DNA of 64,000 bases from an uncultured Candidatus Babeliaceae bacterium (GCA_963704655.1 OY969927.1:1184001-1248000), one strand, 5' to 3'; numbered from the stretch's first letter, positions 2,682 to 50,421 are shown. Notes: generated from the letters alone by a model not told the origin. Numbers and translations are program-made.

Positions 2682-4558
2682 ACTTGGTCTTTCATAAACA
2701 ATTTTTGCTTAAGATTCTGAAATTGAGCAATTATGGTTTCTAATTCTTGATTTCTATTCAATTTCTGAGCCTGAGCTATTTTAATTTTGACACCATTTAC
2801 TATCATTTTCCACCGTTTTTTATAAAACTGTAAAAAAAGTTCCTCCAGCGCGGGGCCTTGTCCTTGAACTTCATCCTCCATCAACAGAGATACGATGAAC
2901 TCCTTTTCATGTTCGGTGCATAGATCTGTTACAGAGACATTGTTCAATAGATCTTTATGCATTTGGAGACGCTCGATAATCGGAAATAAATAAGGAGTAA
3001 AAGCTAGTTTCAAAAAAGCATGCTCTTCTGGCGTCAGGATATATTTTTTACTTATTATAGCAGAGAATATTTTTTTCTCCAAATCGCTAATTTCTATTTG
3101 TGTATTATCAGCTTCTGATTTTTTTTCAATAACTTGCTCTGGCGTGCTATTTGTCACGGCTCGCCCTGAGCGAAGTCGAACGGGTGCGGGGCTGCCTGAA
3201 CCCGGTACAGGGTCACCTGGTTGTAATAGTCGATCGCCTGCTTGATCGCCAGGTTCAAATATAGAATTTTTACGCGCATGGAGCCCCTTCTTTTCAAAAA
3301 AGTGTTTCTTCAGGTTCTCATAAGGTACTTGGCAAGCTTGTGCAGCCTTTTGCAGTAAAAAATCCTGTTTAATCGGATCCTGAACCTGCATGATAAGTTC
3401 TACAATAGCCTTTATGCGTGCCATGCGCTCATGTAAACTCAGCTCGCCTTGATTGTTTTCTGCTGTCTTTTGTATAAAATACTCAAAAATATTAACTGCA
3501 GTTACTGTTAAATGAGTTACATCAGCTCCTTGAGCAACAAGTGAGCAAGGATCCTCCCCTGTAGGAAGCTGAATAACATAAGGTTCAAGTTCAACGTCCC
3601 AGCATAATTGTGTAAGGCGCAGTGCCGCCTTTTGGCCAGCAGAATCGCCATCATACACGGTATATAACTTTTGCGCATAGCGTGATAAATTTTTGATATG
3701 TTCTGCTGTGCAGGCAGTTCCCAATGTAGCAACTGTTTGTGGAATTCCCGCTTGTGCAAATGCGATGCAATCTAAATACCCTTCAACCAGATAAACGGTA
3801 CCAGTATCTTGTATATGCTTTTTTGCCTGGTGAAAACCGTATAAAATAGTCCCTTTTGAAAAATAGGGGTGGTCCTGGGAGTTATAATATTTTGCGCGAG
3901 TATCTTCAGGCATAAATATGCGGCCACCTAGCCCGCATGGTCGCCCAAGGGCATCATGAATTGGGAATGTTATCCGTTCTTCATAGGGGCTATAGAGTGT
4001 TTGCCCTTCGCGTAAAATATTTGCCTGGATAAGATCCTGGGCCATGATATTATTATCTTTGCAGGCAGCTAAAAGTTTTTTAATGCTTTGTTGTCCGCCA
4101 GGAAAGTAGCCGATAGAGAAATTGTCGATGCTTGCTTGGGTGATTCCGCGGTTTTTAATATATTCTTGGGCAACTTTTGATTTCTTAAACTGTTCGATGC
4201 ACCATTGTGCGACAATTTCGTGCACGTGAGTATAGATCTCTTTTTCATGCTTGTTGGCAGTAAACTGTTGCAACGTCTCTTCTGGAAGCTGAATTGCGTA
4301 TCGTTCTGCAAGGTGCTTCACGGCTTCTACTGGTGTGCAATGTTCAACTTTGGTAATAAAGGTCACTACGTCGCCACCGTTATGGCACCCAAAGCAATAA
4401 AATATCTCTTTGTGGGGACTTACGGTAAACGAAGCCGTCCGTTCATGGTGAAACGGGCATTGGCCCTTCCAGTAGTTTCCAGCCCTTTTTAAGGTAGTAT
4501 ATTCCTGAACAACGTCTAAAATCTGGATATGTGTTTTGATAACAGAAAAAATATTCAT
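2678..4558 (-). CDS. dnaG: DNA primase
   Basis: CPFH...CFGC zinc finger, KYYNS, TOPRIM VEGYLD and YDGDSAG; classic dnaG-rpoD order. Confidence 0.98.
   Translation of the reverse strand: MNIFSVIKTHIQILDVVQEYTTLKRAGNYWKGQCPFHHERTASFTVSPHKEIFYCFGCHNGGDVVTFITKVEHCTPVEAVKHLAERYAIQLPEETLQQFTANKHEKEIYTHVHEIVAQWCIEQFKKSKVAQEYIKNRGITQASIDNFSIGYFPGGQQSIKKLLAACKDNNIMAQDLIQANILREGQTLYSPYEERITFPIHDALGRPCGLGGRIFMPEDTRAKYYNSQDHPYFSKGTILYGFHQAKKHIQDTGTVYLVEGYLDCIAFAQAGIPQTVATLGTACTAEHIKNLSRYAQKLYTVYDGDSAGQKAALRLTQLCWDVELEPYVIQLPTGEDPCSLVAQGADVTHLTVTAVNIFEYFIQKTAENNQGELSLHERMARIKAIVELIMQVQDPIKQDFLLQKAAQACQVPYENLKKHFFEKKGLHARKNSIFEPGDQAGDRLLQPGDPVPGSGSPAPVRLRSGRAVTNSTPEQVIEKKSEADNTQIEISDLEKKIFSAIISKKYILTPEEHAFLKLAFTPYLFPIIERLQMHKDLLNNVSVTDLCTEHEKEFIVSLLMEDEVQGQGPALEELFLQFYKKRWKMIVNGVKIKIAQAQKLNRNQELETIIAQFQNLKQKLFMKDQV
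3157..3184 (+). repeat. Palindromic repeat unit inside the dnaG reading frame
   Basis: cggctcgccctgagcgaagtcgaacggg is nearly identical to the reverse complement of intergenic 18879-18905; encodes PVRLRSGRA. Confidence 0.85.
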
Positions 4559-4636
4559 AGATATTTAGTATAACCTAATGAATTTTTTTGTGTGTAAAAA
4601 AAGTTAATGTGTTTTCTGAACTTAAGGTGCTGTGCT

Positions 4637-4963
4637 CTATAGCTTTTTGTTGGCAATTAAAGCTAATTGCGTAGCTCCGCTCATGCTTCCTATAATGCCT
4701 ATAGTTGCAAGAATTGAAGCCCCGATTAATGTTATTATAGGGTCGTTATATTCAACCTCTTGCCATGTTAAGCGTGGAATTTGTCTGTGTGCTAACCATG
4801 CGCCAGCCAAAAGAAGAAAAGTTGCTTTTGAGATGTTTTGCCAACTATCAACAGAAAGTTCTTCTTTAAGAGCCTTTAAATCAATTGTTGCTGTATAGGG
4901 AGTATGAAATAGTGAGATTGTTGAAATTGCTAAAATTATTTTACTCAAAAAACTCTTTTTCAT
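4637..4963 (-). CDS. Hypothetical membrane protein with signal peptide
   Basis: MKK-hydrophobic leader and two further hydrophobic segments; 4-nt overlap with the neighbouring ORF. Confidence 0.75.
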   Translation of the reverse strand: MKKSFLSKIILAISTISLFHTPYTATIDLKALKEELSVDSWQNISKATFLLLAGAWLAHRQIPRLTWQEVEYNDPIITLIGASILATIGIIGSMSGATQLALIANKKL

Positions 4964-5322
4964 ATCAATTCCTCACTAGTAATTTTAAAGCTTCCATCAG
5001 GGTTGCAATAAGTACCTCTAAACATATCATGTGCAGTTTTTAAAAGGGTTGAGACGCCAAAAAGAGGGGTACCTAGCCCTAACAAGCAAATACCTGCGAT
5101 AAAATATTTATCACTATTTTTTAAAGGCATTAACTCTTTTTCTAAATTGAGTTTATATGAGAGCGCTTGTGCGAGCAATGGTAATGTCATTAACGCGCCA
5201 ACGGCCATTATCCCTGCTGACCCATATTGCATGTGTTGATAGGTTATCGTATCGCTTATACAATAACTCGGCGTTGAGCAGATAAAACCCAAGCTTAATA
5301 GTATTAATAATAGTTTTTTCAT
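4960..5322 (-). CDS. Hypothetical membrane protein with signal peptide
   Basis: MKKLLLILLSLG leader, two TM-like segments, SD-like aagggtg. Confidence 0.75.
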   Translation of the reverse strand: MKKLLLILLSLGFICSTPSYCISDTITYQHMQYGSAGIMAVGALMTLPLLAQALSYKLNLEKELMPLKNSDKYFIAGICLLGLGTPLFGVSTLLKTAHDMFRGTYCNPDGSFKITSEELI

Positions 5323-5391
5323 TAAACACCCTTGTGGTTTATATTCTATTATTAATAATAGCGTCTTTATGTGAAATTGTAAAAGTGATGC

Positions 5392-6456
5392 TCAAAAGCT
5401 TGATTTTAATTGATCTTTATACGTTCTATTATTCTTCTCAAGAACTTCCAGAAGTGCAGTGGTCTGTAGATTGCGGAAGCGGTCAATGATGTTTACTTGG
5501 TCCTGAAGCTCTTTTTCGATATCTTCGTCATGTTTGAACCCTGTGGTATTAAAAATACTTGCTTTGCTGGCATCTATTTGTCTTTGGTAACTTATTACCT
5601 TTCGCTCCAAATCAGGGGGCAAAATATGAAGGGTTGTTTGCGCAATAAGGAGCGTTAACATATTTCTTAAAAAGAAATCTTGGAACGTTAATTTACCTTG
5701 CGCGGCGCGTTCGTTTTGTTGGATCTGTAACAATTTCTTTATTAGACCTAATTTAATGAAAATATTATTTATTTCAGCTTCATTCCAAGGATTGGGTGCT
5801 TTTATAGGGCTTTTTTCGTCGAATGTTTGTAATATTCTATCATCAAAAAAAAAATCATCTGCGGACACTAGGTTAAATTTTCGATAATTACAGATCGTTT
5901 TTTTAGAACCAAAATCTGGTTGTTCCTCTATAAGCCTATATTCAAAATACCCATAATCACGTAAATTATCGTCTTGTTTAATCGTCCCAGGCAGATATAG
6001 ATATTTTTTGCCTTCTGGAAAATCGAGTACTAAAGCGTGTTTTTCAAGATGTGCGTCTATGGTTGCGGGAAACGTTCGGTAAGCTTCATCGGGCGAAAAG
6101 GTGCTTGCTCTGGAAACGGGGCTGGTGACATAAAGTTTGCGCTTTTCGTCATATTCAAATTCGGGCAAATTGTTTTCTATATCTAGTATCTCAAGTGCTT
6201 GCCATCTTTCAGTGCTCCGCCTGGAATCATCCTGTTTTAAAGATAATGGGCCACTATTGGTTCTTGGTGAATCACTTATGAAAAGAGGCTTTGGACGAAT
6301 CATGATGCCATCTGGTCCAGTGCCTTCTGATACTGCCCTTCGTAGCCTTTGAATTTTGTCCATTCCATGCGCACATGGGCTCATGGTGAGTGCTATAAAG
6401 AAAAGAATTTTGATTTTTTTATTTCTTATTACACAATTATAAAAAATTTTTTTCAT
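5392..6456 (-). CDS. Hypothetical exported protein
   Basis: 354-aa ORF, leader ending AHG|MDK, SD ggaggg. Confidence 0.8.
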   Translation of the reverse strand: MKKIFYNCVIRNKKIKILFFIALTMSPCAHGMDKIQRLRRAVSEGTGPDGIMIRPKPLFISDSPRTNSGPLSLKQDDSRRSTERWQALEILDIENNLPEFEYDEKRKLYVTSPVSRASTFSPDEAYRTFPATIDAHLEKHALVLDFPEGKKYLYLPGTIKQDDNLRDYGYFEYRLIEEQPDFGSKKTICNYRKFNLVSADDFFFDDRILQTFDEKSPIKAPNPWNEAEINNIFIKLGLIKKLLQIQQNERAAQGKLTFQDFFLRNMLTLLIAQTTLHILPPDLERKVISYQRQIDASKASIFNTTGFKHDEDIEKELQDQVNIIDRFRNLQTTALLEVLEKNNRTYKDQLKSSF

Positions 6457-6649
6457 ACTAAAACCCTCCTATATATTAAAAATATTAAGGCTTAGGGTGA
6501 GCAATAGTCAATAATATGATTATTAAGGGGTGAGGCACCTTAATAATTTCAGCTTGAAAATCTATTTATTTCTGGTATACTTATATTTAACTTAGTAGCG
6601 TAATGCTCTATAAATATAAACAATAACGTTAATAATTAAAGGAATTACA

Positions 6650-6958
6650 ATGAAAAAAATGTTATTATTGAGCGCTCTTTTTGCTGCTTCAGCAGTTATG
6701 GCTATGGATCAAGAAAATAAAACTGCAGCGTTAAAAAACGATGTAAAAACTCTTGAAGCTATGAAATTGGGTGTTCAGCAAGCTCTTGTAAATGTGACAT
6801 TATCACCAAACGTAACTGTTCGCAGAGGTAAGCAATCTATTATCAAGCCTGCTGCATCTGTCGTTGACAATGTTGGCATATTAGAAAGAAAAGAAGCTGC
6901 TTTAACCTTGCAAATTGCAGCTGCTAAAGCAAGATTAGAAGAATCTCAAGCTAAGTAA
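6650..6958 (+). CDS. Small exported coiled-coil protein
   Basis: SD aaagga, leader ending VMA|MDQ, downstream terminator. Confidence 0.85.
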   Translation: MKKMLLLSALFAASAVMAMDQENKTAALKNDVKTLEAMKLGVQQALVNVTLSPNVTVRRGKQSIIKPAASVVDNVGILERKEAALTLQIAAAKARLEESQAK

Positions 6959-7004
6959 TGTTACTTTAATAATTAAATTCTTAACATCTTAGATTTACAT
7001 AATT

Positions 7005-7044
7005 AAGCCCCTGTTACTGTTTTCAGTAGCGGGGGCTTTTTTTT
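7005..7044 (+). terminator. Intrinsic terminator overlapping the lgt 3' end
   Basis: aagcccctgttactg-tttt-cagtagcgggggctt followed by a T-run. Confidence 0.8.
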
Positions 7045-7832
7045 GCGATTAATTCAGAGAAAAGAATAAGAAGTATACCCGCGCACAGTATCCCAATGCT
7101 TATCCACTGGTGAAAAGAAAGTTCGGATGAATACACAAGTGCATCGGTGCTATTAATAATGCGGTCGCCACGATAAAAATCGACCACAAAGCGTTCAAGA
7201 CTAGAAAATATTAAAAATAAACCAGCCAATGTGCCCGGCTGTAATCTAAAGCGTGCGCAGAGCTGTAATATAATAAAAATTCCCAAAAAGATAAGTGAGC
7301 TATAAAGCTGCGTAGGAATCAGTGGCATGTTTAATGGCGCATGCGAACCTGCGTGCGTATACATAATCGACCATGCCGATGTAGTGGCGCATCCAAAGCA
7401 ACAGCCAGCAAACAAGCAGCCTAAGCGAGCAATTGCTTGTGCCAATGGGATATAAAGTGCCCCTAAATCTAAAATGGGTAATACGGGTATTTTGTGGTAC
7501 CACAAAAATAGTGGAACAAAGATAAGCCCTGCAATAATTGCGCCCAATATAGAAAGTCCGCCGTTCCAGACAGAAACCATTTCAGTTAGAGTGTGGTATG
7601 ATTTCCATTCACTTGCAATATGCAATACCCGAGCGCCGATTATGGCAACAATTACTGTATAAATAATAAGCTTTTCGTAAAGAGCCGAACTTATATACTT
7701 TTTACGCAAGAGGTGATTATAACTTAATGCAATAAAAGCGGTGATTCCCAGCGCAACAAAAACGCCATAAATATGTATTGAAAGTTGGCCGAATAAGTGA
7801 AAAATCTCTGGATTTAAACTAAATGTTAGCAT
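7023..7832 (-). CDS. lgt: Prolipoprotein diacylglyceryl transferase
   Basis: IYG, GARVLH, WNGGLSILG, ARLGC, PTQLY and RFVVDFYRGD motifs. Confidence 0.95.
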   Translation of the reverse strand: MLTFSLNPEIFHLFGQLSIHIYGVFVALGITAFIALSYNHLLRKKYISSALYEKLIIYTVIVAIIGARVLHIASEWKSYHTLTEMVSVWNGGLSILGAIIAGLIFVPLFLWYHKIPVLPILDLGALYIPLAQAIARLGCLFAGCCFGCATTSAWSIMYTHAGSHAPLNMPLIPTQLYSSLIFLGIFIILQLCARFRLQPGTLAGLFLIFSSLERFVVDFYRGDRIINSTDALVYSSELSFHQWISIGILCAGILLILFSELIAKKSPRY

Positions 7833-7853
7833 AAATTACATTTCTAAATTTGG

Positions 7854-7950
7854 CCGCATGGATTCGACTACGCTCACCACGAGCGGCCTTTAACCCGTGC
7901 ACCCTGAGTGCCCGAAGTAGCGTTAACGCGAAGACGGGTGTATCGAAGGG
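7854..7950. repeat. Composite (inverted doublet) palindromic repeat overlapping the mnmG stop codon
   Basis: ccgcatggattcgactacgctcaccacgagcgg + ccgtgcaccctgagtg-hairpin-tgtatcgaaggg; supplies the C-terminal PSIHPSSR and the stop. Confidence 0.9.
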
Positions 7951-9869
7951 GCGGCACTAATATTATTTAACTGTTCGCGGCACTTAAAAATCAAAAGGGA
8001 AATTGCTGCAGGCGTCATGCCCTGAATAAGAGCCGCTTGTGCAATGGTTGCCGGTTTTGTTTTTGCAAGTTTTTGCCGTAGTTCAATAGATAACCCAGAA
8101 ATGTCGCTGTAGTCAAGCATTTCTGGAATAATAAGCTCTTTATAATGCTGCATCTTTTCAATCTCACGCTGTTCACGGTGCAAATAGGGCCCATATAAAA
8201 GCTCAGCAAAAATCGACGCCCGTGCGCGTGATGTTAATGCCGCTATGGATTCGACTTCGCTCACCACGAGCGGCCCATTTAACCGTGCACCCTGAGTGTC
8301 CGACGAAGCTTTTAGCAAAGACGGATGTATCGAAGGGTCATATAATCGATCAATAGCTTCATATGCATATGCGCTATCGCCGGTGCCAAGTTTTTGAATA
8401 ATCGTAATATATTCTTTATGTGCTTTTATGCTGTCTGTAACTGCGATAACTGTGTTGTTTTCTGCTTCGATTGCATCATGCATCTCTTTTGATATCAAAT
8501 TAAGTGCATAGGCGCGCTTGTGAAAACGCTTAAAGACATTGTCCTGACGCAGCACAAGGCGACGTTCAGCGCGTGAAGTAAACATGCGATACGGTTCATC
8601 TGCGCCATGTGTGACAAGATCATCGATCATAATGCCGATATAACTTTCATTGCGGTCAAGTACAAATGGTTCTTGATTATGCGCTTTTAAATGCGCATTA
8701 ATGCCCGCAACAATACCTTGACCAGCAGCTTCTTCATAGCCCGTGGTGCCATTAATTTGGCCAGCTAAAAAGAGGCCAGGAACCTTTTTAAGTTCAAGTG
8801 TGTGATGTAACTCTTTTGGTGAAACATAATCATACTCAATAGCATACCCTGGACGTGCTATTTCAACATTTTCAAAACCTTTAATGGTGCGTAAAAATTC
8901 AAGCTGAACCGGTAATGGCAACGATGTTGAAAGGCCATTTGGATAGACTTCATCGCTGCTTGCGCTTTCTGGTTCAACAAAGATATGGTGCGCATCTTTA
9001 TGCGCAAAGCGTGAAATTTTGTCTTCGATAGACGGGCAATAACGTGGCGGTGTGCCCTTAATGTGCCCCGTATAAATAGGTGAATGGTGCCAATTTTTTC
9101 TGATGGCATCATGGGTGTTTTTATTAGTATATGTTACAAAACAGTCCATTTTATGGGTAACTTTATGGGGCGTAAACTCAAAAAGTGCATCAAGTTCGTC
9201 TGACCCTTGGCGCTCCATCTGCGAAAAATCAATACTAGAGCGTATTAATCTTGCAGGTGTTCCTGTTTTGAGCCTGCCCATCGTAAGATTTAAGCTTTTT
9301 AAAAATGCAGGTAAACCTACTGAAGCCTCTTCTGCCTGGCGGCCACCAGAGTAATTAACCTGGCCGGTATGAATTAAGCCATTTAAAAACGTCCCAGTTG
9401 TCAAAATAACCGCTTTTGAGGTGTAAGATGAGCCTTCACGAGTAACTATGCCTATAACCGATCCTTGTTCGTTTAAAAGGCATTTTTCCACCATGGCCAT
9501 ATAGATAGTTAGGTTCGGGGTAGCTTGTAAGTATTTTTGGCTTAATTTATTATATTCAACTTTATCGATCTGGAGCCTTAATCCCTGAACCGCTGGCCCT
9601 TTGCTGGTATTCAGCATTCTGGCCTGAAGATAGGTTTGGGTGCATAATTGTGGCATTAATCCGCCAAGAGCGCTGATCTCAAAGACAATGTGCCCTTTGC
9701 CTATTCCGCCAATGGCAGGATTACAGGGCATATGGCCTATTTTGTCTCTGTTTAGCGTTATAAGCAGGGTTTTTGAGCCCATTCTGGCGGCTGCATACGC
9801 AGCTTCGTTACCAGCATGCCCGGCACCAACGACAATAACGTCAAAATCGAAGTGTTGTGTGTTATTCAT
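7923..9869 (-). CDS. mnmG: tRNA uridine-5-carboxymethylaminomethyl modification enzyme MnmG/GidA
   Basis: [59 protein letters not shown]. Confidence 0.98.
8240..8337. repeat. Composite palindromic repeat inserted in frame within mnmG
   Basis: Same doublet as 7854-7950; encodes [32 protein letters not shown]. Confidence 0.9.
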
Positions 9870-35182: not shown

Positions 35183-35755
35183 CTACTGTTGGGTACAGCC
35201 TTCTATAGAGCGGCCAAGATAGGCAAGATGTTCGTAAATAGAACCGATATCTTCCAATTGGTCTTCATGCAGTTTTTCAGCTAAATATGAAGAAAAGTCT
35301 TGTTCGGAATTTTTTGGTGAGGGTAAAGGCTCCCGGCTGGCTATTCTTTCAGCAAAGTGGTGCAATTCAATTAAGTGGCTCGCCGCTTCAAAAAATTTGA
35401 TTTTTATTTTTCTTGTGAGCTGCCCATGGTTTGCTGTGTTTGCGATCTGTTTTATTCTCTCGCTTGAGAAAAATATATTGAAATCGGTATCTTTAGGGTC
35501 AAAATGCTCAAGTAGTCTATTAAAGCCAAAGTAAATTTGATTGTTGATAATATGAGTAAGAATGGTTTTGCAATTATCGACTGGATTTAAAAATGGAACT
35601 ATAAATTCAGGGCTTTTAAGCGCATGCGTCGAGATGGTAAGTAATATTTTATGCCGTGTGTCTTTATCAAAAGTAGCAAATAACGCTTTTGAAGCATTCA
35701 TTGCGTCAAGGGAAAAAGTAATAAATATGAAAGCTGAGAAAATTTTTTTTATCAT
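35183..35755 (-). CDS. Exported protein, tandem family member 1 (ends CTQQ)
   Basis: MIKK leader; FF(S/T)xxR and ASHLIxLH motifs shared with both neighbours. Confidence 0.8.
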   Translation of the reverse strand: MIKKIFSAFIFITFSLDAMNASKALFATFDKDTRHKILLTISTHALKSPEFIVPFLNPVDNCKTILTHIINNQIYFGFNRLLEHFDPKDTDFNIFFSSERIKQIANTANHGQLTRKIKIKFFEAASHLIELHHFAERIASREPLPSPKNSEQDFSSYLAEKLHEDQLEDIGSIYEHLAYLGRSIEGCTQQ

Positions 35756-35859
35756 AATAAAAAAATTGTTAAAAAATAACGTATTGCTTTTATTATTGTT
35801 TATTAAAAACAACAAAATCGCAATACGTTATTTTAAAAATTAAAGATGAGTCTTTTTTT

Positions 35860-36595
35860 TTATGATTGTCTGCAATCTTCAAGGGCTTGCTTTAAGTCGA
35901 TTACCTGAATGCCAGATTTAGGATAAGCACTTGGATGAGCATCTTCATAAAAGTTCATTTTTGTTTTCAGAGCATCTAACTTTTCGTTAAGATCTTTAAC
36001 GGTCTCAGAAGCTTTGTTAGTTGTATCAAGTATGCATGCTAGATTCATGGAGAAATCGTTTGGTTCGATATTTTTGCATGCTGCCAATTCCAATCTCTCG
36101 CGTACTGTTTTTGCTTCATGATGTAAAATCATCAAGTGGCCTGCAAGTTGAAAATACATTTTTTTATGTTCACCTAAATCACGAGAGCGACCATCTGCCG
36201 CCATCTTTTCAATGCGTTCATCAGTGAAGAATTTTGCAAAATTGGTATGGTTTTCATCTAAGCCTTCGGTGACTTTGATTAAAGCGGCTGCGCCTTTAAG
36301 TCTAGGCTGTTTTTCTTGTATTGCTTCTAAAAGAGATTTCCCAGTGTTTTTTTTAGTTATCTGGTTATCAAAAGCATACGTCAGGAACAGTGGTAATGAA
36401 CTTTTGTCTTTGATAACCGGAAATATTGCATCAAAGGTTTCACCTAAATTTTCTGCTGCTTCCGTTGCTAGCGCATATAAGATTTCTGCTTTTGTTCGTT
36501 GATTATCGATACTTGCGTATTCAAAAACATTAACTTCACTTGCTTGTGCAGTTGCGCAGAGTAACGTGAGTAAAAGATAGAATTTTTTTTATCAT
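35860..36595 (-). pseudogene. Exported protein, tandem family member 2 (ends CRQS), with a +1 frameshift in a poly-A tract near the start
   Basis: Frame is open from 36588 to 35860; the leader DNA matches that of 36621-37262 except for one extra A; 736 nt = 3n+1. Confidence 0.8.
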
Positions 36596-36620: not shown

Positions 36621-37262
36621 TTATTGTAGTGGGCAGCCAAGTTCATAAAATTGATTTTGTGAGAAGGGTATAAGTGCTGGGCCATTAATTCTCTTTTCTA
36701 ATGACTCACGCTTTTGTTTGAGCAAATCGCTTTCCTGTAACGGGTTATGCAATCTTTTTACTAAATATGAAGCGAGACTATCAACACTATGGGTTTCTTG
36801 TATACCTATGGCAATACCATCGGCAATTTCCAATGCGTGCCCATGTAACTGAATTAAATGACTGGCTTGTGAAATATACAATGCTTTTTTATCGAAAGGC
36901 CAATTTGAATTTGTGGCTTGTTGAGCTATTTGATCTAAACGAGCATCAGAAAAGAATGTTTTAAAGTCTGTGTCAGCTTTGTCAAAAGACGTAGCAACGT
37001 TTTCTATATTACCATGTATCTGGTGATCTAAAATTTTTTTAAGTGTTTTTTCGCATATATCCCTCGATTCCAGCTCCTGAGGGTTTTCTGTTAAAAAAGG
37101 CACTATAGCAGTTTCAGGGTTTTTTAATGGTAGTGTCGATAGCCCAAGTAATACATGTAATCTTGTTGTTTCATCAAGAGAAGCAAATTTTGTAAGACTA
37201 TTTTCATTGGCATGTGCAGATGCGCAGAGTAACGTGAGTAAAAGATAGAATTTTTTTATCAT
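36621..37262 (-). CDS. Exported protein, tandem family member 3 (ends CPLQ)
   Basis: MIKKFYLLLTLLCASAHA leader; DFKTFFSDARL and ASHLIQLH. Confidence 0.82.
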   Translation of the reverse strand: MIKKFYLLLTLLCASAHANENSLTKFASLDETTRLHVLLGLSTLPLKNPETAIVPFLTENPQELESRDICEKTLKKILDHQIHGNIENVATSFDKADTDFKTFFSDARLDQIAQQATNSNWPFDKKALYISQASHLIQLHGHALEIADGIAIGIQETHSVDSLASYLVKRLHNPLQESDLLKQKRESLEKRINGPALIPFSQNQFYELGCPLQ

Positions 37263-41711: not shown

Positions 41712-42425
41712 ATGCAATTTCATATAAAAAACATTTTTATTATTTTAGCTTTTTATGCTTTTTCCACTATTCCTGTTTGCGCAATGAATGCAAATATGCA
41801 AAAAACGCTTGACGCTGTTGAAGCTAACATTGAATTGGCTGAGCGCATCAAGGATGAGACAGAACAAGAATTTAAGACTCAAAAGGAATCTTTTGATGCA
41901 TTGGGTAAAGATTTCTCTACCAGCCAAGAGTATCAGCAACTTCGCGTTAAAATTGATACCTATAGAGCAGCTAGAGAAGTACTTACTTGGGAACAAATAT
42001 CTTCTGGAAGGTTCTGTCCAGTTGACTCAGAAAGATTTTCTAAGTATTGCTTAACCCGGGGTTTGCACTATCAAGGAGATATGTCTTATCAGGGAGATAC
42101 GTTTTCAGACAAAGAGGAGGAAGTTGAATTGCAAAAGATTGAAAATAATATTGAAAAAACGATTAGAAATCATAAAAATCCTCGAATGGCTGCCTTGATT
42201 GCACGTATGCAACATGATAAAAAACAAAATAAGAAACAAAAACTGGATAAAATAGCTGAAGCGAATTTTCATCAGGCATATTTATTAGAACAGCTTATCT
42301 TTGGGTTAGTAACTAAACCATTATCTGAAGAACAGTTTAAAGAACTAGCTTCTAATGGTTTTGATAAGAAAAAATTGTCTGCTATGATTCGCTCGTATAG
42401 AATTTATAAGAGTAATGATGTGTGA
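41712..42425 (+). CDS. Hypothetical exported coiled-coil protein
   Basis: Leader ending VCA|MNA. Confidence 0.8.
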   Translation: MQFHIKNIFIILAFYAFSTIPVCAMNANMQKTLDAVEANIELAERIKDETEQEFKTQKESFDALGKDFSTSQEYQQLRVKIDTYRAAREVLTWEQISSGRFCPVDSERFSKYCLTRGLHYQGDMSYQGDTFSDKEEEVELQKIENNIEKTIRNHKNPRMAALIARMQHDKKQNKKQKLDKIAEANFHQAYLLEQLIFGLVTKPLSEEQFKELASNGFDKKKLSAMIRSYRIYKSNDV

Positions 42426-42454
42426 TTAAAGATTAAATAAAATAAAGGTACATT

Positions 42455-42943
42455 ATGAAAAATAGTTCAAAGATATTGTTGTTGATCGCATTTATGGGCA
42501 TGGGGACAGTTACCATTTATGGTGGTGACCGTAAAGTTCTAGGCAGGGTTAATGATAGTGGATTGAAAAAAAATCTTCTTGGGGCAAGTCTTGGGGCAAG
42601 TCTTGGGGCAAGTAGTGCACCCACTCGTGAAAAAAGGTTATATTCGAACTGGGTCCAGGGTTCATACTACTTAGGTTTCGACTTGGGCTTGCCAGATGTA
42701 AGTTCACTTTCAATTAAAGATATGACGAGACAAATGCCAAAAGAAGGTGTGGATGGAGAAACGTATAATGCTGTATTAGAAAATGGTGATATTTTAGAAG
42801 TAACTTATTTTCATGCAGGACCAATGAAAGGTCAATTTTTGGGTAACCATTTTTGCCAGGATGGTGTTAACGGTTACAGCGTAAGTGCGGAATATTTTAA
42901 TAAGATTAAACAACGTTATGAAGAATTACAAAAACCTCGTTGA
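42455..42943 (+). CDS. Hypothetical exported protein
   Basis: SD aaaggt; hydrophobic leader. Confidence 0.8.
   Translation: MKNSSKILLLIAFMGMGTVTIYGGDRKVLGRVNDSGLKKNLLGASLGASLGASSAPTREKRLYSNWVQGSYYLGFDLGLPDVSSLSIKDMTRQMPKEGVDGETYNAVLENGDILEVTYFHAGPMKGQFLGNHFCQDGVNGYSVSAEYFNKIKQRYEELQKPR
42577..42613 (+). repeat. Perfect in-frame 12-bp tandem repeat x3 (LGAS)
   Basis: (tcttggggcaag)3. Confidence 0.95.
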
Positions 42944-43221
42944 ACCTTTGTAGAAAGAGATTCAAATAATTAATAGATTAAGAAAAAAGAGGGACTATTT
43001 TTAAAATAGTCACTCTTGCAATAGATGGTAGTAAAAAACTACTTATTTTGTAAGATATTCTTGAATTCTGAATAATACGCGCGCGAAGTTGTTGCGTTCA
43101 AACGTATATTTTTCTTCAGCTGTTTGTGCGTCACTTGCTGTTCTAATAAGAATATTGCACTATATAGGGCAGTTTTGTTATCTTTTGTATAGGGTTTATT
43201 TAAGTTCACAAATGGGGGGCC

Positions 43222-44145
43222 ATGATGAAGATACAAATCTATACATTAATACTTGTATCTATGTTGTCTATTTCGGCAATGGAGCTACAAAAGACAAAGT
43301 CTGAAGGCGATGCTTTTAATGGGGCGCTTGACTCAGGTGATTTAGAAACGATGCTCACGCAGGCTGAGCAACTTTTTGATAGTGACTATCTTCAGGCATG
43401 GGCATTGGCTGAAGCCGCAACTGCCTTTGCAAGAGAAGGCGAAGCAGCATACTTTCTAGCGCGTCGATTTATTCCCGAAATAAGTAATTCAATAAAACGG
43501 CAAGAAGTATTGGATGGCAAACAGACCGGGGAATATCTCTTAAACCGAGCATGCTCGCAAAATAATCCCGCAGCAAAAGAATTTTTTAAAGAGCTTAATG
43601 GTCAGGAATTTCAGCATTCTACAACTCATGATAAAAGTAGAGCAGAATTTGAAGAGTATATACGATCGAGAAAACAATTAAGAGCTGAGGATTTTTTACG
43701 TAATGCACAAGGGTGTAGTGAGCCTGGCCATTCTGGCGATTTTAGACATCATTTACGTGGATTAACGTTGGCAATGATCGGTTTTTTTCAATACCCAGAT
43801 GACCACAATCTGCCATTCTGGATCGCACAATTTGCCAGCAATCGACAAGCCAATAAATCATATAAAGATTCTGGGGACTTTCAACATCTATTTTCTCCAA
43901 ATATACCGCTTGCTGAAAAATATTTAGCTTTTGCAAGCAAAGGGGAAGCTTCTACTCAAGCACGCATATTGCTGTTACAAGCACATTTAAACCGGGACAA
44001 AAAAACTGATAATCCGCGCGAATTATATAGCGAAGCACTTGCTGCGCCAGACTTTCATACATTGCCTGATCATGTAAATCTTAAACGTTCTATCGAGCGT
44101 GAAATACATACGTGCGGGGCATCATGCGGTTGTGCTGTATTATGA
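43222..44145 (+). CDS. Exported helical-repeat (Sel1/TPR-like) protein with C-terminal CaaX motif
   Basis: Leader ending ISA|MEL; YLLNRACSQNNPAA and LAEKYLAFA; ends CGASCGCAVL. Confidence 0.82.
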   Translation: MMKIQIYTLILVSMLSISAMELQKTKSEGDAFNGALDSGDLETMLTQAEQLFDSDYLQAWALAEAATAFAREGEAAYFLARRFIPEISNSIKRQEVLDGKQTGEYLLNRACSQNNPAAKEFFKELNGQEFQHSTTHDKSRAEFEEYIRSRKQLRAEDFLRNAQGCSEPGHSGDFRHHLRGLTLAMIGFFQYPDDHNLPFWIAQFASNRQANKSYKDSGDFQHLFSPNIPLAEKYLAFASKGEASTQARILLLQAHLNRDKKTDNPRELYSEALAAPDFHTLPDHVNLKRSIEREIHTCGASCGCAVL

Positions 44146-45024
44146 TGCGCCCGTTGCCTTGCATAGATCACTTATATCACGATCAAGCATTTTAATGCTG
44201 TCTTTACAGCTATTCATGATAGCGCGCGAGGCATGTATCCCTTCTGGGCCTTCGGGATTGCCAAAGCTTGTAAGTACTTCCATGAATGTAGGATTTGGCA
44301 ATTTACTGTAGATCGTTAATTCGGTTTCAGTAAATGGGAAAGGAGCAAGTTCAATCATCGCTTCTTTATATTTTTCTAACTTTCTTTTACGTTTTGCCAA
44401 CTGTAAAACTAGTGCACTTGCTGGCACTTTTTCTGTAGCATGTGCAGTGCATAATGCAACAAATTTACTTAATTGATCTGGCATTGTATAGAGCCCTTTG
44501 CCAACATAGTATTGCGGATCAAAATTATTGTTTGGCTTTGTATGCTCAGGATTATTTGAAGAAAGAAATGTTTTATAATCTGTAAGGCCAAAATTCGTGC
44601 ACTTTTGGGCAAACTCTGGGGCTGTCACCTTAAGTTCAGAGCGTTTTCTAAGTTCTTGATGCGTATCAATGATGGTATTAAAAATTTGTGGGCGAAGTGC
44701 GATTAGTTTTTTCCAATTTGTAAGCGTTGGTGTAGGGTATCGATTTTTATAATATTCGTTTAATGCTGCAAGCCCTGCAACGGTTATTGCGCATGTTGCC
44801 GAAGATGCTGGCAGACTTATGATATATTGGGCTACCGCTGCAACAGGAAGTGTCAATATAAAAGCTGGCACTGTTGCGCCAAGCCCTTCTTGTACCGCTT
44901 GCGCATGTAATTCTTTGTCTGTTGGATCTGGCGGCAGTTCGTCCATTGCCATAAGTGGGAGTATGCAAAGTAGTGAAAGAAGATAGAAGTTAATGATATT
45001 TTCCCTGTTGTTTTTATTCGTCAT
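44140..45024 (-). CDS. Hypothetical exported protein with two hydrophobic segments
   Basis: Leader ending LMA|MDE; start uncertain. Confidence 0.75.
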   Translation of the reverse strand: MTNKNNRENIINFYLLSLLCILPLMAMDELPPDPTDKELHAQAVQEGLGATVPAFILTLPVAAVAQYIISLPASSATCAITVAGLAALNEYYKNRYPTPTLTNWKKLIALRPQIFNTIIDTHQELRKRSELKVTAPEFAQKCTNFGLTDYKTFLSSNNPEHTKPNNNFDPQYYVGKGLYTMPDQLSKFVALCTAHATEKVPASALVLQLAKRKRKLEKYKEAMIELAPFPFTETELTIYSKLPNPTFMEVLTSFGNPEGPEGIHASRAIMNSCKDSIKMLDRDISDLCKATGAS

Positions 45025-45343
45025 CTTGCCAGTCTTTTTTTGTTGAGCAGGTATGTTCCACGGGTATGAGATAAAAGTTTTTTATACCTTCACCTGTAGA
45101 ATTTGTACTCACACGATAACAATTTAAGCCAGTTTCTTCATCATACACTATAGGCCAATTTCGTGGAACCGGCTGCCATTGGTCTTCTGAAAATCCTTGA
45201 AAATGACTCAGTGCATAGGATGTTGTTTTTTGTAATCCATTGATAGTCAGGAGAGTCGAGAAATTCTTGAATGAGTGCCAGGCCAGCTGTTAATTCTGGA
45301 ACCGCACGCAATTTGTCTAATTTTTACTATCTCACGTAATGTT

Positions 45344-46720
45344 TTACGGGACAAGGGTATCAAGAATGAATTCGGACCATGTCTTTTCATAGCGTAAATC
45401 AAAAAGATACTGCAAAAACCATTGCATATCTTCAGGAAATGACCGGTAAATATCATTCATTTGGTCACGGTCCAATTTTTTATTATTTTTTTCAATGAGA
45501 CTACTTATCGATAACGGAAGCCCTTTATTTTTGCTGGCAATAAGCAACAATACAAAAAGTTTTTGTTCCAACGTTGGTGCATGCTTTTTTCTGCTATTAA
45601 AAAAATATTCTGTCAGTTTTTCTTGTGGGTGCCAAAGGTATATACCTTCATGCGTGGCACATTGGTTTTCTACAGGGTTCCATGCAAATGCCATTTCATT
45701 TGAAGGGAACTCAAGTTTATGCATGAGCTCTTCTGTTGTATGGTTAACGATATAAATGCCATTATACTCACTATTTTCTTTGTAATACGTAGCCGCGATA
45801 TAGTTGCCATCTGGTGACCACGCGAGGTTTTGTATTTTATTATCCTGCTCATGAACAGGCGCTATCTCTTTTCTATCAGATAGTTCATATGCATCATCCA
45901 GCGCATATGTTGTTATTTGGCTCTCTCCTGAAAACGCAATATGCGTCCCCAGTTTGTTAAATATTAAATTTTCATAAAGTCGCGATTCTGGCGCGACAGG
46001 AGGAATTATTGTCTTTTTTAAGCCTTCAAGAGCATCATATACCGTTACTCTATCGTGGCAAACTAAAATAAATTCTGGTTTAATGGGGTGCCAGGCCAAA
46101 TTTTTTGAATCATCTCCAAAATCACTGCCGTATTCCGTTTGCGTGAAAGGCATAGATTTAATTAATTTTTTTGTTGAAAGGCAATAGGTAGAAACTCTAT
46201 CATTTTTAAGCGATGCAAATAAATCATGGGATGGGGATATAAATAACTCGCTACCCGCTTGATATATCTCTTGGCCGGTATTCATATCGATGAACATGTA
46301 TTTGCCAATTGAGGCTACATCGTTATGGGCCCAGCTTATTTTGCCAGTGGAAAGGAATGGGCAAATGACTTTGGCGCGCTGTATTCTTTTTGCGGTTTTT
46401 ATACATGAAAGGTACCAGATGTCATTCCGTACCGCAAGTTGAGTGCCATCTGGGTTCCATGCCAGCTGCTTAATAAAATTATTAACGGGTATCTTTTTGC
46501 AAAAGTGCATATCGGGCAGCGTTTTAAGCGCATTTTTGAGCATATATCCAACAATATGATCTTTTATTTCATCGGGTAATCTATTATCAAAAAATGGCAC
46601 TTTTGCTTTTTGATCTTGCTTGTTTATTATGCGCTCACCCGCTGCGGTGATAAGAAGATCAGTGATGGGGGCAAAAAGACAGGGACAACAAAACGTGAAT
46701 GCTAATGCTATCTTATTCAT
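45344..46720 (-). CDS. Exported WD40-repeat protein with F-box-like motif
   Basis: ATGA overlap with the upstream stop; FDNRLPDEIKDHIVGYM; LAWNPDG, LAWHP, LAWSPDG. Confidence 0.88.
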   Translation of the reverse strand: MNKIALAFTFCCPCLFAPITDLLITAAGERIINKQDQKAKVPFFDNRLPDEIKDHIVGYMLKNALKTLPDMHFCKKIPVNNFIKQLAWNPDGTQLAVRNDIWYLSCIKTAKRIQRAKVICPFLSTGKISWAHNDVASIGKYMFIDMNTGQEIYQAGSELFISPSHDLFASLKNDRVSTYCLSTKKLIKSMPFTQTEYGSDFGDDSKNLAWHPIKPEFILVCHDRVTVYDALEGLKKTIIPPVAPESRLYENLIFNKLGTHIAFSGESQITTYALDDAYELSDRKEIAPVHEQDNKIQNLAWSPDGNYIAATYYKENSEYNGIYIVNHTTEELMHKLEFPSNEMAFAWNPVENQCATHEGIYLWHPQEKLTEYFFNSRKKHAPTLEQKLFVLLLIASKNKGLPLSISSLIEKNNKKLDRDQMNDIYRSFPEDMQWFLQYLFDLRYEKTWSEFILDTLVP

Positions 46721-47913
46721 ATAAAAAAACATAATGCCTCTGATACTGGGCGTTCATGGTATACCGTTTGGCTCTCTGTAGAGTTTTTAATAAAATAACA
46801 TGCTGATGGTTGATTTGGTATGGTGTCTTTAAGATACAGCGTGGTGCATCCACCGCCGCCGATATTTAATGCATCGGTGCATCCTAGGTTTTGCATAAAT
46901 TCTGCAAGCTCCGGCATGCTTATACCTTCACTGTCTTTGGTTCGCCCTTCAACAACAACTATACAGAGTTGATTATTTGTGGTTATGCCGACTGCAGTGC
47001 GTGGGTGGCGTTGGTCAATAAGCCAATGTTGCATCTGCGTGGTATGAAAATCTGCCGCGACTTCGTCATTGCAATGCACAATTTCCTGCCCTTGGCTAAA
47101 CTCTTCAAAAAGCTCTTGCTGTTGTATGGTGCCATTATGTATCAGTAAACCTGCGCCACCAAGTACAAAATCATAATCGTTATAGGTTGTTGAATTGTCA
47201 GCTGATGTAACTTCAAGTTTTAAGGTCACCGGCATGCCCTTTTGTAGATCGCATGCGCTTTCAGAATCAACTTGGTATACATAGGTGCCATTTTTAATTT
47301 CTGGTATATCATGCGTGACATTTTGCACGGTGCCATCTGCAATAATAATATTCTTGCCCGGTGTGTGGTTCAACAAAAATGCATCAGCGCATGGTGTGTA
47401 TAAAACTGATTGGCCATAAACTCGTGGCTGGTTAACGTGATCAACGGTATAGCGTTTGTTATCACTAGAGAAATCTATCTTTAAAAATGTTTTATCAATT
47501 GTTGCCTTTTTAGTTTTACTGTTCCAACCAAAAGAGCCACGGGTAAGTTGAAGATCGGAATAAACCTTTTTATCAAGATATAAAAGATTCACTCTATTGC
47601 CATTATATTTTCCGCCACGTCTATAGTTGCTGCCATTAACTGCAAGTAATGCATTGCATCGTTTTGCTATACTGGAGACCTCTTCACGTTGACCCAGGGC
47701 AGGGACAAGTTTAATATCGACTGTATCTAATGGCAGGGTGATGACATGCGCATTAAGGGGAAATTCTGTTGCAGTATAGCGAGCATATAAGATATCAGTT
47801 TCTAACTGCTGAGTTTCTTGAAGGTGCACTTTTATCGCAAAAGATTGTTGAATAATTAAAAGTGCAATAAGTGATAAATTTGTGATGCGCAATAACGTAT
47901 TTTTTTTGATCAT
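46717..47913 (-). CDS. Phosphodiester glycosidase (NAGPA) family protein with leader
   Basis: RHPRTAVG, VVEGR, ELAEFMQNLGCTDALNIGGGG, ERPVSEAL. Confidence 0.85.
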   Translation of the reverse strand: MIKKNTLLRITNLSLIALLIIQQSFAIKVHLQETQQLETDILYARYTATEFPLNAHVITLPLDTVDIKLVPALGQREEVSSIAKRCNALLAVNGSNYRRGGKYNGNRVNLLYLDKKVYSDLQLTRGSFGWNSKTKKATIDKTFLKIDFSSDNKRYTVDHVNQPRVYGQSVLYTPCADAFLLNHTPGKNIIIADGTVQNVTHDIPEIKNGTYVYQVDSESACDLQKGMPVTLKLEVTSADNSTTYNDYDFVLGGAGLLIHNGTIQQQELFEEFSQGQEIVHCNDEVAADFHTTQMQHWLIDQRHPRTAVGITTNNQLCIVVVEGRTKDSEGISMPELAEFMQNLGCTDALNIGGGGCTTLYLKDTIPNQPSACYFIKNSTESQTVYHERPVSEALCFFI

Positions 47914-48422
47914 ATTCTCACCTTATTATAAGTAATGCCTTTAATGCCAAGCTTTTCAGCTGTTGCAATATTAACATATTGGTCATCAATGAAAAGTGAT
48001 TCTTCGACTTTTAAATGATATTTTTTTATAAGATGCTGGTAAATTTCGATATCTGGTTTGTTAACATTAATATCTTGCGAGATAACGACGCCGTCAAAGA
48101 GGTTTAAAAAATCTGGGTAATGTCTTTGCAATAAGTTTAACGACTTAGTGACCCAGTTTGAAAGAATATAGAGCTTATGCACCTTATTGCCATCAGCATC
48201 TTTTTTACATGAAAGTTCATGCACTATAGTATGCATTTCTTGTATAGGTTTAAATGGATTAAATTCTTGATGTGTAAAGCCGATGCTTAAATCGTCGCTT
48301 GTATAGTTAAACAGGACGCCACCGATATCAAAAATAATATTTTTAATTTTTTGATCTTCGATTATTTTCATTATAGTATCTTGACCATGTAACGATAGAG
48401 ATAAAAAAAGAAGTGGGTACAT
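47910..48422 (-). CDS. HAD-superfamily phosphatase
   Basis: IIFDIGGVL, LSN, KPD, FIDD; start after SD aaaggt. Confidence 0.88.
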   Translation of the reverse strand: MYPLLFLSLSLHGQDTIMKIIEDQKIKNIIFDIGGVLFNYTSDDLSIGFTHQEFNPFKPIQEMHTIVHELSCKKDADGNKVHKLYILSNWVTKSLNLLQRHYPDFLNLFDGVVISQDINVNKPDIEIYQHLIKKYHLKVEESLFIDDQYVNIATAEKLGIKGITYNKVRI

Positions 48423-48432
48423 CAACCTTTTT

Positions 48433-49014
48433 TTAATAGGCAAACCCGATGCCGGCTCGAAGATCAAATCCACCGATATCAGCTTTTTGTTTATTAAAGG
48501 TCTCGCGTGGGAACAGGTAGCGGAAGGCAGCAGTAACATCAAAATAGCGGGACACAAATAAGTTTAAACCAACTTCAAATTCGCCGATCCCTTTAGCCGC
48601 TTTTATCGTTTCGCTATAACTTTTTTCAAGCATAAAGATCGCTCCGCCACCTAATGAAATATAGGGCTGGAACGTGCCTCCAGTGCTCAAAAGTGTACGT
48701 AAGTAAAAAGTGAGAGGAACTTCTTGTAATTTTGTTGGATTTTTTAAAAAGGTTGTCTGCCCTTTTGTTTTCCAATAACTTACCTTTGAACCGATTCCAA
48801 TAGATTCTAGGAAATAATAACAGGCATCAACCGTTATTATATTTTGTATGCCATTTTTATAAATTATATTAAAATCGCTATCATCATGCTTAAAGACATA
48901 GCCGGTAGTAAAGGCGAGATTAAAACTTGTGCTCTGTTTTTTTTTCGGCTCTTGGCGAGCTTTAAAACATAGCAAAGGTGTGAACAGAAAGAGCAAAAAA
49001 GCTAATTTTTTCAT
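48433..49014 (-). CDS. Outer-membrane beta-barrel protein (8-stranded type)
   Basis: Leader, amphipathic strands, FQPYISLGGG, terminal GIGFAY. Confidence 0.8.
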   Translation of the reverse strand: MKKLAFLLFLFTPLLCFKARQEPKKKQSTSFNLAFTTGYVFKHDDSDFNIIYKNGIQNIITVDACYYFLESIGIGSKVSYWKTKGQTTFLKNPTKLQEVPLTFYLRTLLSTGGTFQPYISLGGGAIFMLEKSYSETIKAAKGIGEFEVGLNLFVSRYFDVTAAFRYLFPRETFNKQKADIGGFDLRAGIGFAY

Positions 49015-49041
49015 GGTAGTATTCTATAGTTATAATGTATT

Positions 49042-50421
49042 TTATTTGAGCCATAATCTTTCATAAATAGCTGATGTATTAAGACTGCCATTTGGGTAAA
49101 GGGCAACAACGCTGTATCCGCTACATTTATTTTTCGGTGCCTTGAATGTCCATGTATTTGTTCCTTGAGGTGAAGTAGTGGTGCTGCCGATTAAGATACC
49201 ATTTTGATAAATAAAGATTTTTGATGGATTTTGTGCAGTTCCGCAGAGTTTTTTATAGTGAGATTTTTTCGTAACATTACAAATGCGTGTTGATGTTAAT
49301 CGTGGGCTATTTAAATAGCGTGCAACTTGAACAAGATTAAATGATTGATCTGCGCCTACTGCAATAATTTTTCCATTGCATTGCAATGCGCCATCAAATA
49401 TTGTTGCACCAGGTGGTGTTTCAACAACCCCATTTGTCCCAAATGTTGTGTCCAGTTGTCCGCTTGATGTATAGCGCACCAATTGAAAATCTAATATGGA
49501 GTAAGAAGGCGCCCCAAGCAGAATGCATTTGCCGTCTGCCTGTAAAAGCAGAGCATTTGCAATGCCAGAGGGCCCTGAAATGACACCGCCGCCAAAGGTG
49601 GTATCAAGTGATCCATCGCTATTCAAACGTACTAGTTCTAATGTTGGGGTAAAGGTGCTGCCCGCTATAATTATTTTTCCATCTGGTTGTAAAACAATTG
49701 GGCCCCATATGCCTCCGGGAGCAACAGCTACCGCAAAGCTGTCATCAAGTGTGCCGTCTGTATTGTATCGTATAACCGTTAAATTAAAGCTGCTGGAATT
49801 GCCCGCAACAATAACTTTGCCGTCATTTTGAATGGTAATACCTTCAATATATTGCCCAGGACCGCTTTCAAATATCGTGTCAACACTACCATTTGTGTTG
49901 TAGCGTACCACCACAAACAACCCGGTATTATCATTGGTTCCTGCAAGAATGATTTTGCCATCAGTTTGGAGTGCAAGAAAAGCGCCGATGCCAATAGGGC
50001 CTATTACCACACCATCAGAGCCGAATGTTGTATCATTTGTTCCATCTGGATTGTAGCGTATCAGCTGAAAGAATTGAAATGTTGCATCTGCGCCGGCTAT
50101 AATAATTTTTCCATCAGGTTGTATAATAACACTTGAAGCTAATATCCCTGTGGTATCAGTAACAACACCATTTGTGCCAAAAGTGGTATCAATTGTTCCA
50201 TCTTTATTGTAACGTATGGTTATCGTGGCACCCACTGTATTTGTTGCTAGTACGACAATTTTGCCATTAGTTTGAATGGCGCATGAAAAACCGACAAATC
50301 CATTTGTTGGAGAATCGACAAAGCCAGCACCAGCGCCAAATGAAGGGTCCAACGTGCCATCTTGTGCAGATAAACTTAAGCATATTCCATAGAAACTGAT
50401 AATGAGTAATATTTTTTTCAT
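49042..50421 (-). CDS. Exported delta-60 repeat beta-propeller protein with C-terminal Ig-like domain
   Basis: About 7 repeats of QxDGKIxxAG...RYNxDGTLDxTFG. Confidence 0.9.
   Translation of the reverse strand: MKKILLIISFYGICLSLSAQDGTLDPSFGAGAGFVDSPTNGFVGFSCAIQTNGKIVVLATNTVGATITIRYNKDGTIDTTFGTNGVVTDTTGILASSVIIQPDGKIIIAGADATFQFFQLIRYNPDGTNDTTFGSDGVVIGPIGIGAFLALQTDGKIILAGTNDNTGLFVVVRYNTNGSVDTIFESGPGQYIEGITIQNDGKVIVAGNSSSFNLTVIRYNTDGTLDDSFAVAVAPGGIWGPIVLQPDGKIIIAGSTFTPTLELVRLNSDGSLDTTFGGGVISGPSGIANALLLQADGKCILLGAPSYSILDFQLVRYTSSGQLDTTFGTNGVVETPPGATIFDGALQCNGKIIAVGADQSFNLVQVARYLNSPRLTSTRICNVTKKSHYKKLCGTAQNPSKIFIYQNGILIGSTTTSPQGTNTWTFKAPKNKCSGYSVVALYPNGSLNTSAIYERLWLK

Follow-up and report, generated by a model that had tools for sequence, protein, structure and literature searches.

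The DNA stretch analysed here, a window of 64,000 nucleotides from an uncultured Candidatus Babeliaceae bacterium (GCA_963704655.1 OY969927.1:1184001-1248000), contains an open reading frame (ORF) of 307 amino acids (aa; 43222-44145, plus strand) that begins with a hydrophobic leader and has HTCGASCGCAVL-stop as its C-terminal end. The last four residues read as a CaaX box, the eukaryotic signal for prenylation, and the question raised by this locus is whether a secreted bacterial protein is lipidated by the enzymes of the host cell. Because nearly all of the very divergent relatives keep the lipid-anchor tail, it appears that the host probably fastens the protein to its own membranes, and the gene product is best regarded, with reasonable though not full confidence, as a secreted effector of protist-infecting Babeliaceae, namely a tetratricopeptide repeat (TPR)-like scaffold exported by the Sec pathway and a type II secretion system (T2SS) and geranylgeranylated by the host. 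The C-terminus and the leader followed by MEL, from which the initial annotation had started, were both confirmed from the ORF sequence.

The source genome is a single contig of 1,298,077 bases with 38% G+C and is 96% complete. The closest matches to its Lon protease, 89-94% identical, are found in metagenome-assembled genomes named Candidatus Babeliaceae or Dependentiae (TM6), and Dependentiae are described as obligate intracellular bacteria of protists (PMC6561590; PMC12172432). A second ATG at 43225 provides an alternative start for the gene, and the database gene call (P0001, 294 aa) begins at Met14 (43261), which removes the leader. As the leader is present in all homologs, a start at 43222 or 43225 is better than Met14.

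The C-terminal CaaX box and its conservation

No Pfam or NCBIfam family was matched by the window protein, and its relatives were found to be few. Only four proteins reached E <= 0.001 when 1.84 billion representatives were searched exhaustively with HMMER, and word-indexed searches, whether started from the single sequence or from 6- and 12-sequence profiles, returned only the protein itself together with P0005 and P0006. A search of genome contigs with the window protein alone found no relative, and a metagenome scan gave no match with alignment A6 and only the contig already carrying P0005 with alignment A7. The order-wide genome search disclosed matches at E <= 0.001 in 7 of 261 genomes, and the four accepted as carrying the family all belong to the window's own genus (6 genomes). 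The other three (G024, G038 and G125) were set aside, their matches (E 2.5e-6 to 3.2e-4, 50-79 residues) covering the leader or one TPR-like stretch only.

The family includes 15 gene copies that share 15-28% identity with the window protein: five in the window's own genome (G000), two each in G002, G003 and G004, and four from metagenomes (P0003, P0004, P0005 and a 293-aa neighbour of P0005). In G000, four paralogs form a tandem cluster at 120-125 kb (L005 = G000:C1:116000-130000, 4321-8832), with members of 359 aa, 321 aa and 303 aa and one split copy consisting of two overlapping ORFs (101 aa and 240 aa), the end of which is still CVIL. In the 359-aa copy a tail segment of about 30 residues is duplicated (..SERRRIEKILVQIGQQENPNAPIYQN.. 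occurs twice), and one of the two G004 copies is also a split gene. Several leader-bearing HAD-like paralogs flank the G000 cluster.

A CaaX end was found in 11 of the 15 copies, reading CAVL, CVLL (two copies), CVIL (three copies), CQIL, CTIL, CIVQ, CVIQ and CVVS. When these 11 tails were right-justified, position -4 was Cys and position -2 was Ile, Val or Leu in every one; position -3 was Val in seven, with Ala, Ile, Gln and Thr once each, and position -1 was Leu in eight, Gln in two and Ser in one. Upstream of the box, at positions -5 to -12, no residue occurred in more than 4 of the 11 tails, and tail lengths vary. Homologs lacking the motif would have spoken against the canonical CaaL box proposed in the initial annotation, but the motif is kept at the low identities given above, Cys304 is invariant among the CaaX-bearing homologs, and CAVL stands directly before the TGA stop in the window protein. 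Among the remaining copies, the 332-aa protein of G003 (L088:1-1205(-)) ends ...EGYR-TGA-QQNGECPLM-stop, with nine in-frame codons past the TGA; this looks like a cut-off CaaX-like end, a box lost by a recent nonsense change or a candidate for read-through. The last three copies have no box and end SIFE, HIFG and FSLL.

A maximum-likelihood tree was built from 13 full-length rows, with the two split copies left out and a midpoint root only. The tree splits deeply into two clades (support 100/99), and its terminal branches measure about 0.5-1.9 changes per site. CaaX-bearing copies occur to either side of the midpoint root, and the three copies lacking a box group together in a clade of their own (100/99), so that the simplest reading of the tree, and one that fits these sequences, is an ancestral box kept by selection and lost once.

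Across the genome, a C-a-a-X sequence at the exact C-terminus was found in 13 of 1211 ORFs (about 1%), compared with an average of 3.9 over 39 internal offsets. As 4 of the 13 belong to the family under study, the excess is mostly due to it. Homologs of three other ORFs with such endings were examined as controls in 41 genomes of the taxonomic family. The ORF ending CILF has orthologs with 69% and 57% identity, whose last residues are TSLLF and YYLKF. The ORF ending CFFI (46717..47913 in the window, minus strand, 398 aa, leader-bearing), with the terminal sequence ...ERPVSEALCFFI, has its conserved Cys within an ERPVSEALC motif at -4, -5, -7 or -8 in homologs; since the distance of this Cys from the end varies, the ending belongs to a conserved motif of the domain and does not represent a prenylation box. 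The third ending, CSVI, was not kept in homologs. As all three controls fail, the conserved box distinguishes the target family and cannot be put down to the genome or to the method, and a broad use of CaaX endings by this genome was mostly rejected.

Matches to protein prenyltransferase alpha and beta subunits (PPTA, Prenyltrans) and to an Rce1-like/CPBP protease were sought in the bacterium's own genome, at its 96% completeness, and none was found; the box, if read at all, must therefore be read by the host. A Leu at position X directs geranylgeranyltransferase I, while Gln, Ser or Met directs farnesyltransferase. By this rule, both lipid types would be used within the family. In the window protein the tail has the layout C-x3-C-x-C-AVL, in which Cys302 and Cys298 are candidate sites of S-palmitoylation. 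This layout recalls H-Ras, and the CC-QIL and CC-TIL ends of two relatives recall RhoB, the tails of these two proteins being CxxCxC-aaX and CC-aaX, respectively. The resemblance to Ras and Rho is limited to the tail, as the target has no GTPase domain and its body is a TPR-like helical repeat.

Leader, fold and a possible second host-directed motif

In the N-terminal sequence, MMKIQIYTLILVSMLSISA|MEL, a short charged beginning precedes 15 hydrophobic residues without charge, and position -1 is occupied by a small residue. Its n-, h- and c-parts, MMK / IQIYTLILVSMLSIS / ISA|M, were read by eye and not with a dedicated signal-peptide predictor. On this reading it looks like a cleavable Sec signal peptide, predicted to be cut after Ala19 to give a mature protein starting with MEL. 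The leader noted at the first inspection is thus probably of the Sec type and is common to the family alignment, an equivalent leader occurring across the family with, in most homologs, a small residue followed by T/A/M-E/D.

An Ala-Met-(Asp/Glu/Asn) sequence was often seen after leaders throughout this genome: 25 instances of AM[DEN] fall within residues 12-40, where its density elsewhere would predict about 4. Within the window it is found at 43276-43284 (AME) and in the ORFs 44140-45024(-) (..LMAMDEL..), 41712-42425 (..VCAMNAN..) and 35183-35815(-) (..LDAMNAS..). This context may represent a preferred cleavage site or a secondary sorting signal.

The structure was modelled with AlphaFold2 from the 12-sequence family alignment, which gave a mean predicted local distance difference test score (pLDDT) of 79.7, a predicted template modelling score (pTM) of 0.78 and 15 helices; a single-sequence model was poor (pLDDT 47.8) and was not used. 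Residues 300-307 fall below a pLDDT of 50 behind the confident helical body, which points to an accessible tail. When the model was compared with the PDB by Foldseek, eight of the top ten rows were Sel1 or Sel1-like repeat (SLR) proteins, headed by LpnE (6deh), LceB (8sxq), Oxalobacter SLR proteins, HcpC and SEL1L, with E values of 0.023-0.12, template modelling (TM) scores of 0.23-0.33 and a root-mean-square deviation (rmsd) of about 18 A. The two Legionella proteins, LpnE and LceB, resemble the target as alpha-alpha solenoids and gave E values of 0.023 and 0.040, respectively, with a probability of 0.97-0.98, but differ from it in that the TM scores were only 0.24-0.28 at an rmsd of 18-19 A and in that the signal of the target family is of the TPR type.

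VIA-align, run against 48,161 chains, placed residues ~150-304 onto three-TPR domains, the best being 7tb1_A (Z 8.5, rmsd 2.8 A over 125 residues, where Z under ~13 is common for helical repeats), and many further TPR rows at Z 7-8 covered the same residues. Pfam TPR_1/TPR_8 was matched by 4 of the 12 family members (best 1.5e-5), although by the window protein alone not at all, whereas Pfam Sel1 (PF08238) was matched by none of the 12 at E <= 1. The family profile matched consensus TPR proteins with E 1.3e-8 at profile positions 238-293, and no Sel1 protein was among its 59 PDB sequence matches. In ESM Atlas features, the Sel1-carrying clusters reached 0.89, below the 0.9 line. From the Pfam counts and the profile match, the target is predicted to be a TPR-like alpha-solenoid, with a classical TPR signal in the sequences of its family. 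The term Sel1-like, given to the protein at first, remains fair for the general shape on account of the weak Foldseek rows, but does not hold as a family label.

Just past the leader, at residues 24-37, 7 of the 12 aligned members carry a PPxY motif (PPPY, PPAY, PPSY, PPDY or PPCY), namely L005:5383-6462(-), L005:7867-8832(-), L005:6857-7768(-), P0002, P0005, L088:207-1205(-) and L094:1501-2340(+). Only 15 such motifs occur in the 1211 ORFs of the genome, four of them in the target family; the window protein has none. As PPxY is a ligand motif of eukaryotic WW domains, it would be a second host-directed motif of the family, and host ubiquitin ligases with WW domains (Nedd4-type) could be brought by it to a lipid-anchored scaffold. 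A 175-aa leader-bearing ORF adjoining two family members on a metagenome contig (L101:2865-3392(+)) also has PPSY after its leader, and its C-terminal 40 residues are extremely rich in Cys.

Proposed delivery to the host and alternative explanations

In the mechanism proposed, the leader would direct export by Sec and would be cut after Ala19 by signal peptidase I. The folded TPR-like protein would then leave the cell, most likely through a type II secretin or in outer-membrane vesicles, and reach the host cytosol, where host geranylgeranyltransferase I would modify the terminal CAVL with a C20 lipid at Cys304 and host Rce1 and Icmt would trim and methylate the end. Cys302 and Cys298 would perhaps be acylated by host palmitoyl transferases to give a stable anchor with two lipids, as in H-Ras and RhoB, and the helical repeat domain, tethered to the membrane, would serve as a docking scaffold for a host protein.

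The genome searches matched signal peptidase I, two secretins and two ATPases of the T2SS/type IV pilus type (T2SSE). VirB4 (PF03135) and FHIPEP (PF00771) were searched for in the genome without a match, type VI and type VII secretion systems not being part of the search, so that injection machinery of the type III (T3SS) or type IV (T4SS) kind, used by the known CaaX effectors, was not found. T2SS genes, including two gspD copies, are reported to be common to TM6 genomes (PMC4776705). In the account of Chromulinavorax destructans, signal peptides are given for 44% of coding sequences and 78% of ankyrin proteins, the Sec system is proposed as an effector route, and outer-membrane vesicles early in infection and a tight wrapping by organelles are described (PMC6561590).

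Several points weigh against a host-lipidated effector. A Sec leader normally takes a protein to the periplasm or outside, and the access of a Sec-exported protein to the host cytosol would be the weakest link of the model as well as its distinguishing mark. The crude hydrophobicity rule for leaders flagged 720 of the 1211 ORFs and is too permissive as a test; under this rule CaaX ends were found in 10 of the 720 flagged ORFs and 3 of the other 491, which is no significant difference (Fisher p 0.26). With the family counted once, the genome-wide number of CaaX ends drops to 10 against 3.9, and when the failed controls are removed as well the excess is largely gone. The family is narrow and thus offers few independent lineages for the conservation argument, and the three copies without the box indicate that the fold does not depend on it for function. 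Only 3 of the 11 CaaX-bearing copies (the window protein, the 321-aa copy of G000 and the 305-aa copy of G004) have a further Cys in the six residues before the box; palmitoylation is therefore plausible for particular copies but is not a family trait, and the dual lipidation put forward in the initial annotation stands as a reasonable prediction for the window copy, which has both Cys302 and Cys298, and not as a conserved feature. Prenylation, secretion and localisation, including the secretion route, host-cytosol access and the host target, are all steps that we infer. Finally, those bacterial effectors for which prenylation is known enter the host by T3SS or T4SS injection (PMC2916131, PMC13081727, PMC13423502).

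Among the alternatives, one that is unlikely but has to be considered first is that the TPR protein resides in the periplasm or on the surface of the bacterium and is never exposed to the host cytosol. The conserved Cys-hydrophobic tail would then have a function within the bacterium, for example by forming a disulfide, binding a metal, touching the outer membrane or acting as a tag for sorting or quality control. The periplasm is indeed the first destination indicated by a Sec leader, leader-bearing TPR proteins are common in the envelope (PilW- and LapB-type models are matched by a 734-aa TPR protein of the window), the box is dispensable in three family members, and the CxxxCxC tail of the window protein could bind a metal. 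Such an explanation nevertheless leaves unaccounted for a Cys standing exactly at -4 in 11 of 11 tails with an aliphatic second a residue and Leu, Gln or Ser at X, while the sequence upstream drifts and the extra cysteines are not conserved. The failure to find an Rce1-like/CPBP protease in the genome and the PPxY motif, a ligand of eukaryotic WW domains, in relatives likewise count against it, and a bacterial system recognising a tail of this kind is not known to us.

It is still less probable that the leader remains uncleaved, or the protein is kept on the bacterial surface or on vesicles, so that the host-prenylated end, inserted in a host membrane, bridges the bacterium or its vesicles to a host organelle. 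Hydrophobic elements are present at both ends of the protein, AlphaFold2 drew residues 2-38 as one long helix, and vesicles and organelle wrapping are known from C. destructans (PMC6561590), but the hydrophobic stretch is only ~15 residues long and ends in the small-residue site typical of cleaved signal peptides. That the CaaX-like ending is a functionless accident on an ordinary orphan gene is hardly credible, for even though about 1% of the ORFs (13 of 1211) end so and none of the three tested was conserved, the box is found in 11 of 15 copies, across branches exceeding one change per site and to either side of the root.

The secreted, host-lipidated effector proposed here has its closest precedent in Legionella pneumophila, in which AnkB and PelA, C, D, E, H, I and K need the box Cys for anchoring to host membranes by host prenyltransferases; the same sources describe Legionella as having no prenyltransferase of its own and its effectors as translocated by the Dot/Icm T4SS (PMC2916131, PMC13081727). 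The two cases are alike in that proteins of an intracellular bacterium, amoeba-adapted in the case of Legionella, end in a eukaryotic CaaX box and in that the target genome likewise yielded no prenyltransferase. They differ in that the Legionella proteins are delivered by a T4SS and their prenylation was shown, whereas the target has a Sec leader in a genome where neither VirB4 nor FHIPEP was found and its prenylation is predicted; the phylum is also another one (Dependentiae) and there is no sequence relation. In Salmonella, the localisation of GtgE depends on the CaaX Cys and on geranylgeranyltransferase I (PMC13423502).

The window protein also has the same layout as Salmonella SifA, a CaaL box with cysteines just upstream, and SifA is reportedly modified by both host prenylation and S-acylation (Reinicke et al. 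2005). SifA and GtgE, however, are injected by a T3SS, come from an animal pathogen and have unrelated folds, and upstream cysteines are found in only a minority of the CaaX-bearing copies of the target family.

No report of CaaX boxes or prenylation in Dependentiae was found in the literature library searched; Table S1 of PMC2916131, on CaaX proteins of other bacteria, may bear on this point. Host prenylation of bacterial effectors is known; new would be the phylum, the classical leader, a genome in which no T3SS or T4SS core was found, and the fold. If the proposal is true, mimicry of host lipidation extends to a deeply separate and almost unstudied phylum of protist parasites, and the protein offers a handle on whether leader-bearing proteins, 44% of coding sequences in C. 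destructans, reach the host cytosol. As prenylation is possible only there, a Cys304-dependent lipid label in infection would be direct proof of Sec-dependent cytosolic delivery. More tentatively, it may be that Dependentiae, which seem to possess export of the Sec and type II kinds only and for which no injection machine was found here, deliver leader-bearing proteins to the protist cytosol, and that at least one rapidly evolving TPR family makes use of host CaaX prenylation, changing between the geranylgeranyl type (X = Leu) and the farnesyl type (X = Gln, Ser or Met), with most members adding PPxY; if so, the family would be without precedent among CaaX effectors outside Proteobacteria and would also be the first of them to carry a classical signal peptide.

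Feature coordinates and neighbouring genes

Table 1 Features of the target gene and of related loci, numbered from the first base of the window unless a genome handle is given.
Feature	Position	Strand	Remarks
Whole gene	43222..44145	+	307 codons + TGA; protein ends EREIHTCGASCGCAVL
Sec-type leader, residues 1-19 (MMKIQIYTLILVSMLSISA)	43222..43278	+	Read from sequence; predicted cut site
All-helical body, residues ~30-295; C-terminal half (~150-295) TPR-like	43309..44106	+	Predicted by AlphaFold2, VIA-align and family profile
Flexible pre-box tail, residues 296-303 (HTCGASCG)	44107..44130	+	Sequence; low pLDDT
Cys298 codon	44113-44115	+	Position -10, with box Cys304 at -4
Cys302 codon	44125-44127	+	Position -6
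CaaX box Cys304-Ala-Val-Leu	44131..44142	+	Cys304 44131-44133; Ala-Val-Leu 44134-44142
Stop TGA	44143-44145	+	Directly after CAVL
Convergent neighbour ORF, 294 aa, leader-bearing orphan	44140..45024	-	Overlaps last 6 bases of target gene
35-37 kb family paralogs	35183-35815, 35860-36408, 36621-37262; G000:C1:897814-898668	-	Cys at -4

A second set of genes with Cys near the end, at 35-37 kb of the window, had been taken in the initial annotation to be unrelated to the target. Apart from the leader, this was borne out by hhalign, which gave probabilities of 3.3% and 0.8% and found the leader alone in common. The four paralogs of this other family end CTQQ, CRQS, CPLQ and CSIM, with inner residues that are mostly non-aliphatic, and a homolog in G004 ends CEQGQM, with the Cys at -6. 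The second, independent use of host prenylation in the window that the initial annotation proposed for the target relative to this family thus stands as a hypothesis.

At the 3'-end of the target gene, the codon of Leu307 (TTA) is the complement of the TAA stop of the convergent neighbour. A promoter/terminator scan around the gene gave 6 against 4.4 in shuffles and 2 against 1.3, and disclosed no excess.

The target is surrounded by a run of leader-bearing orphan or eukaryote-like genes (41712-50421 of the window), which looks effector-rich. Its members include orphans of 237 aa and 162 aa, the 294-aa orphan, a WD40/beta-propeller protein (45344-46732), the 398-aa protein and a delta-60 repeat protein (49042-50421; TIGR02608, 1.8e-76).

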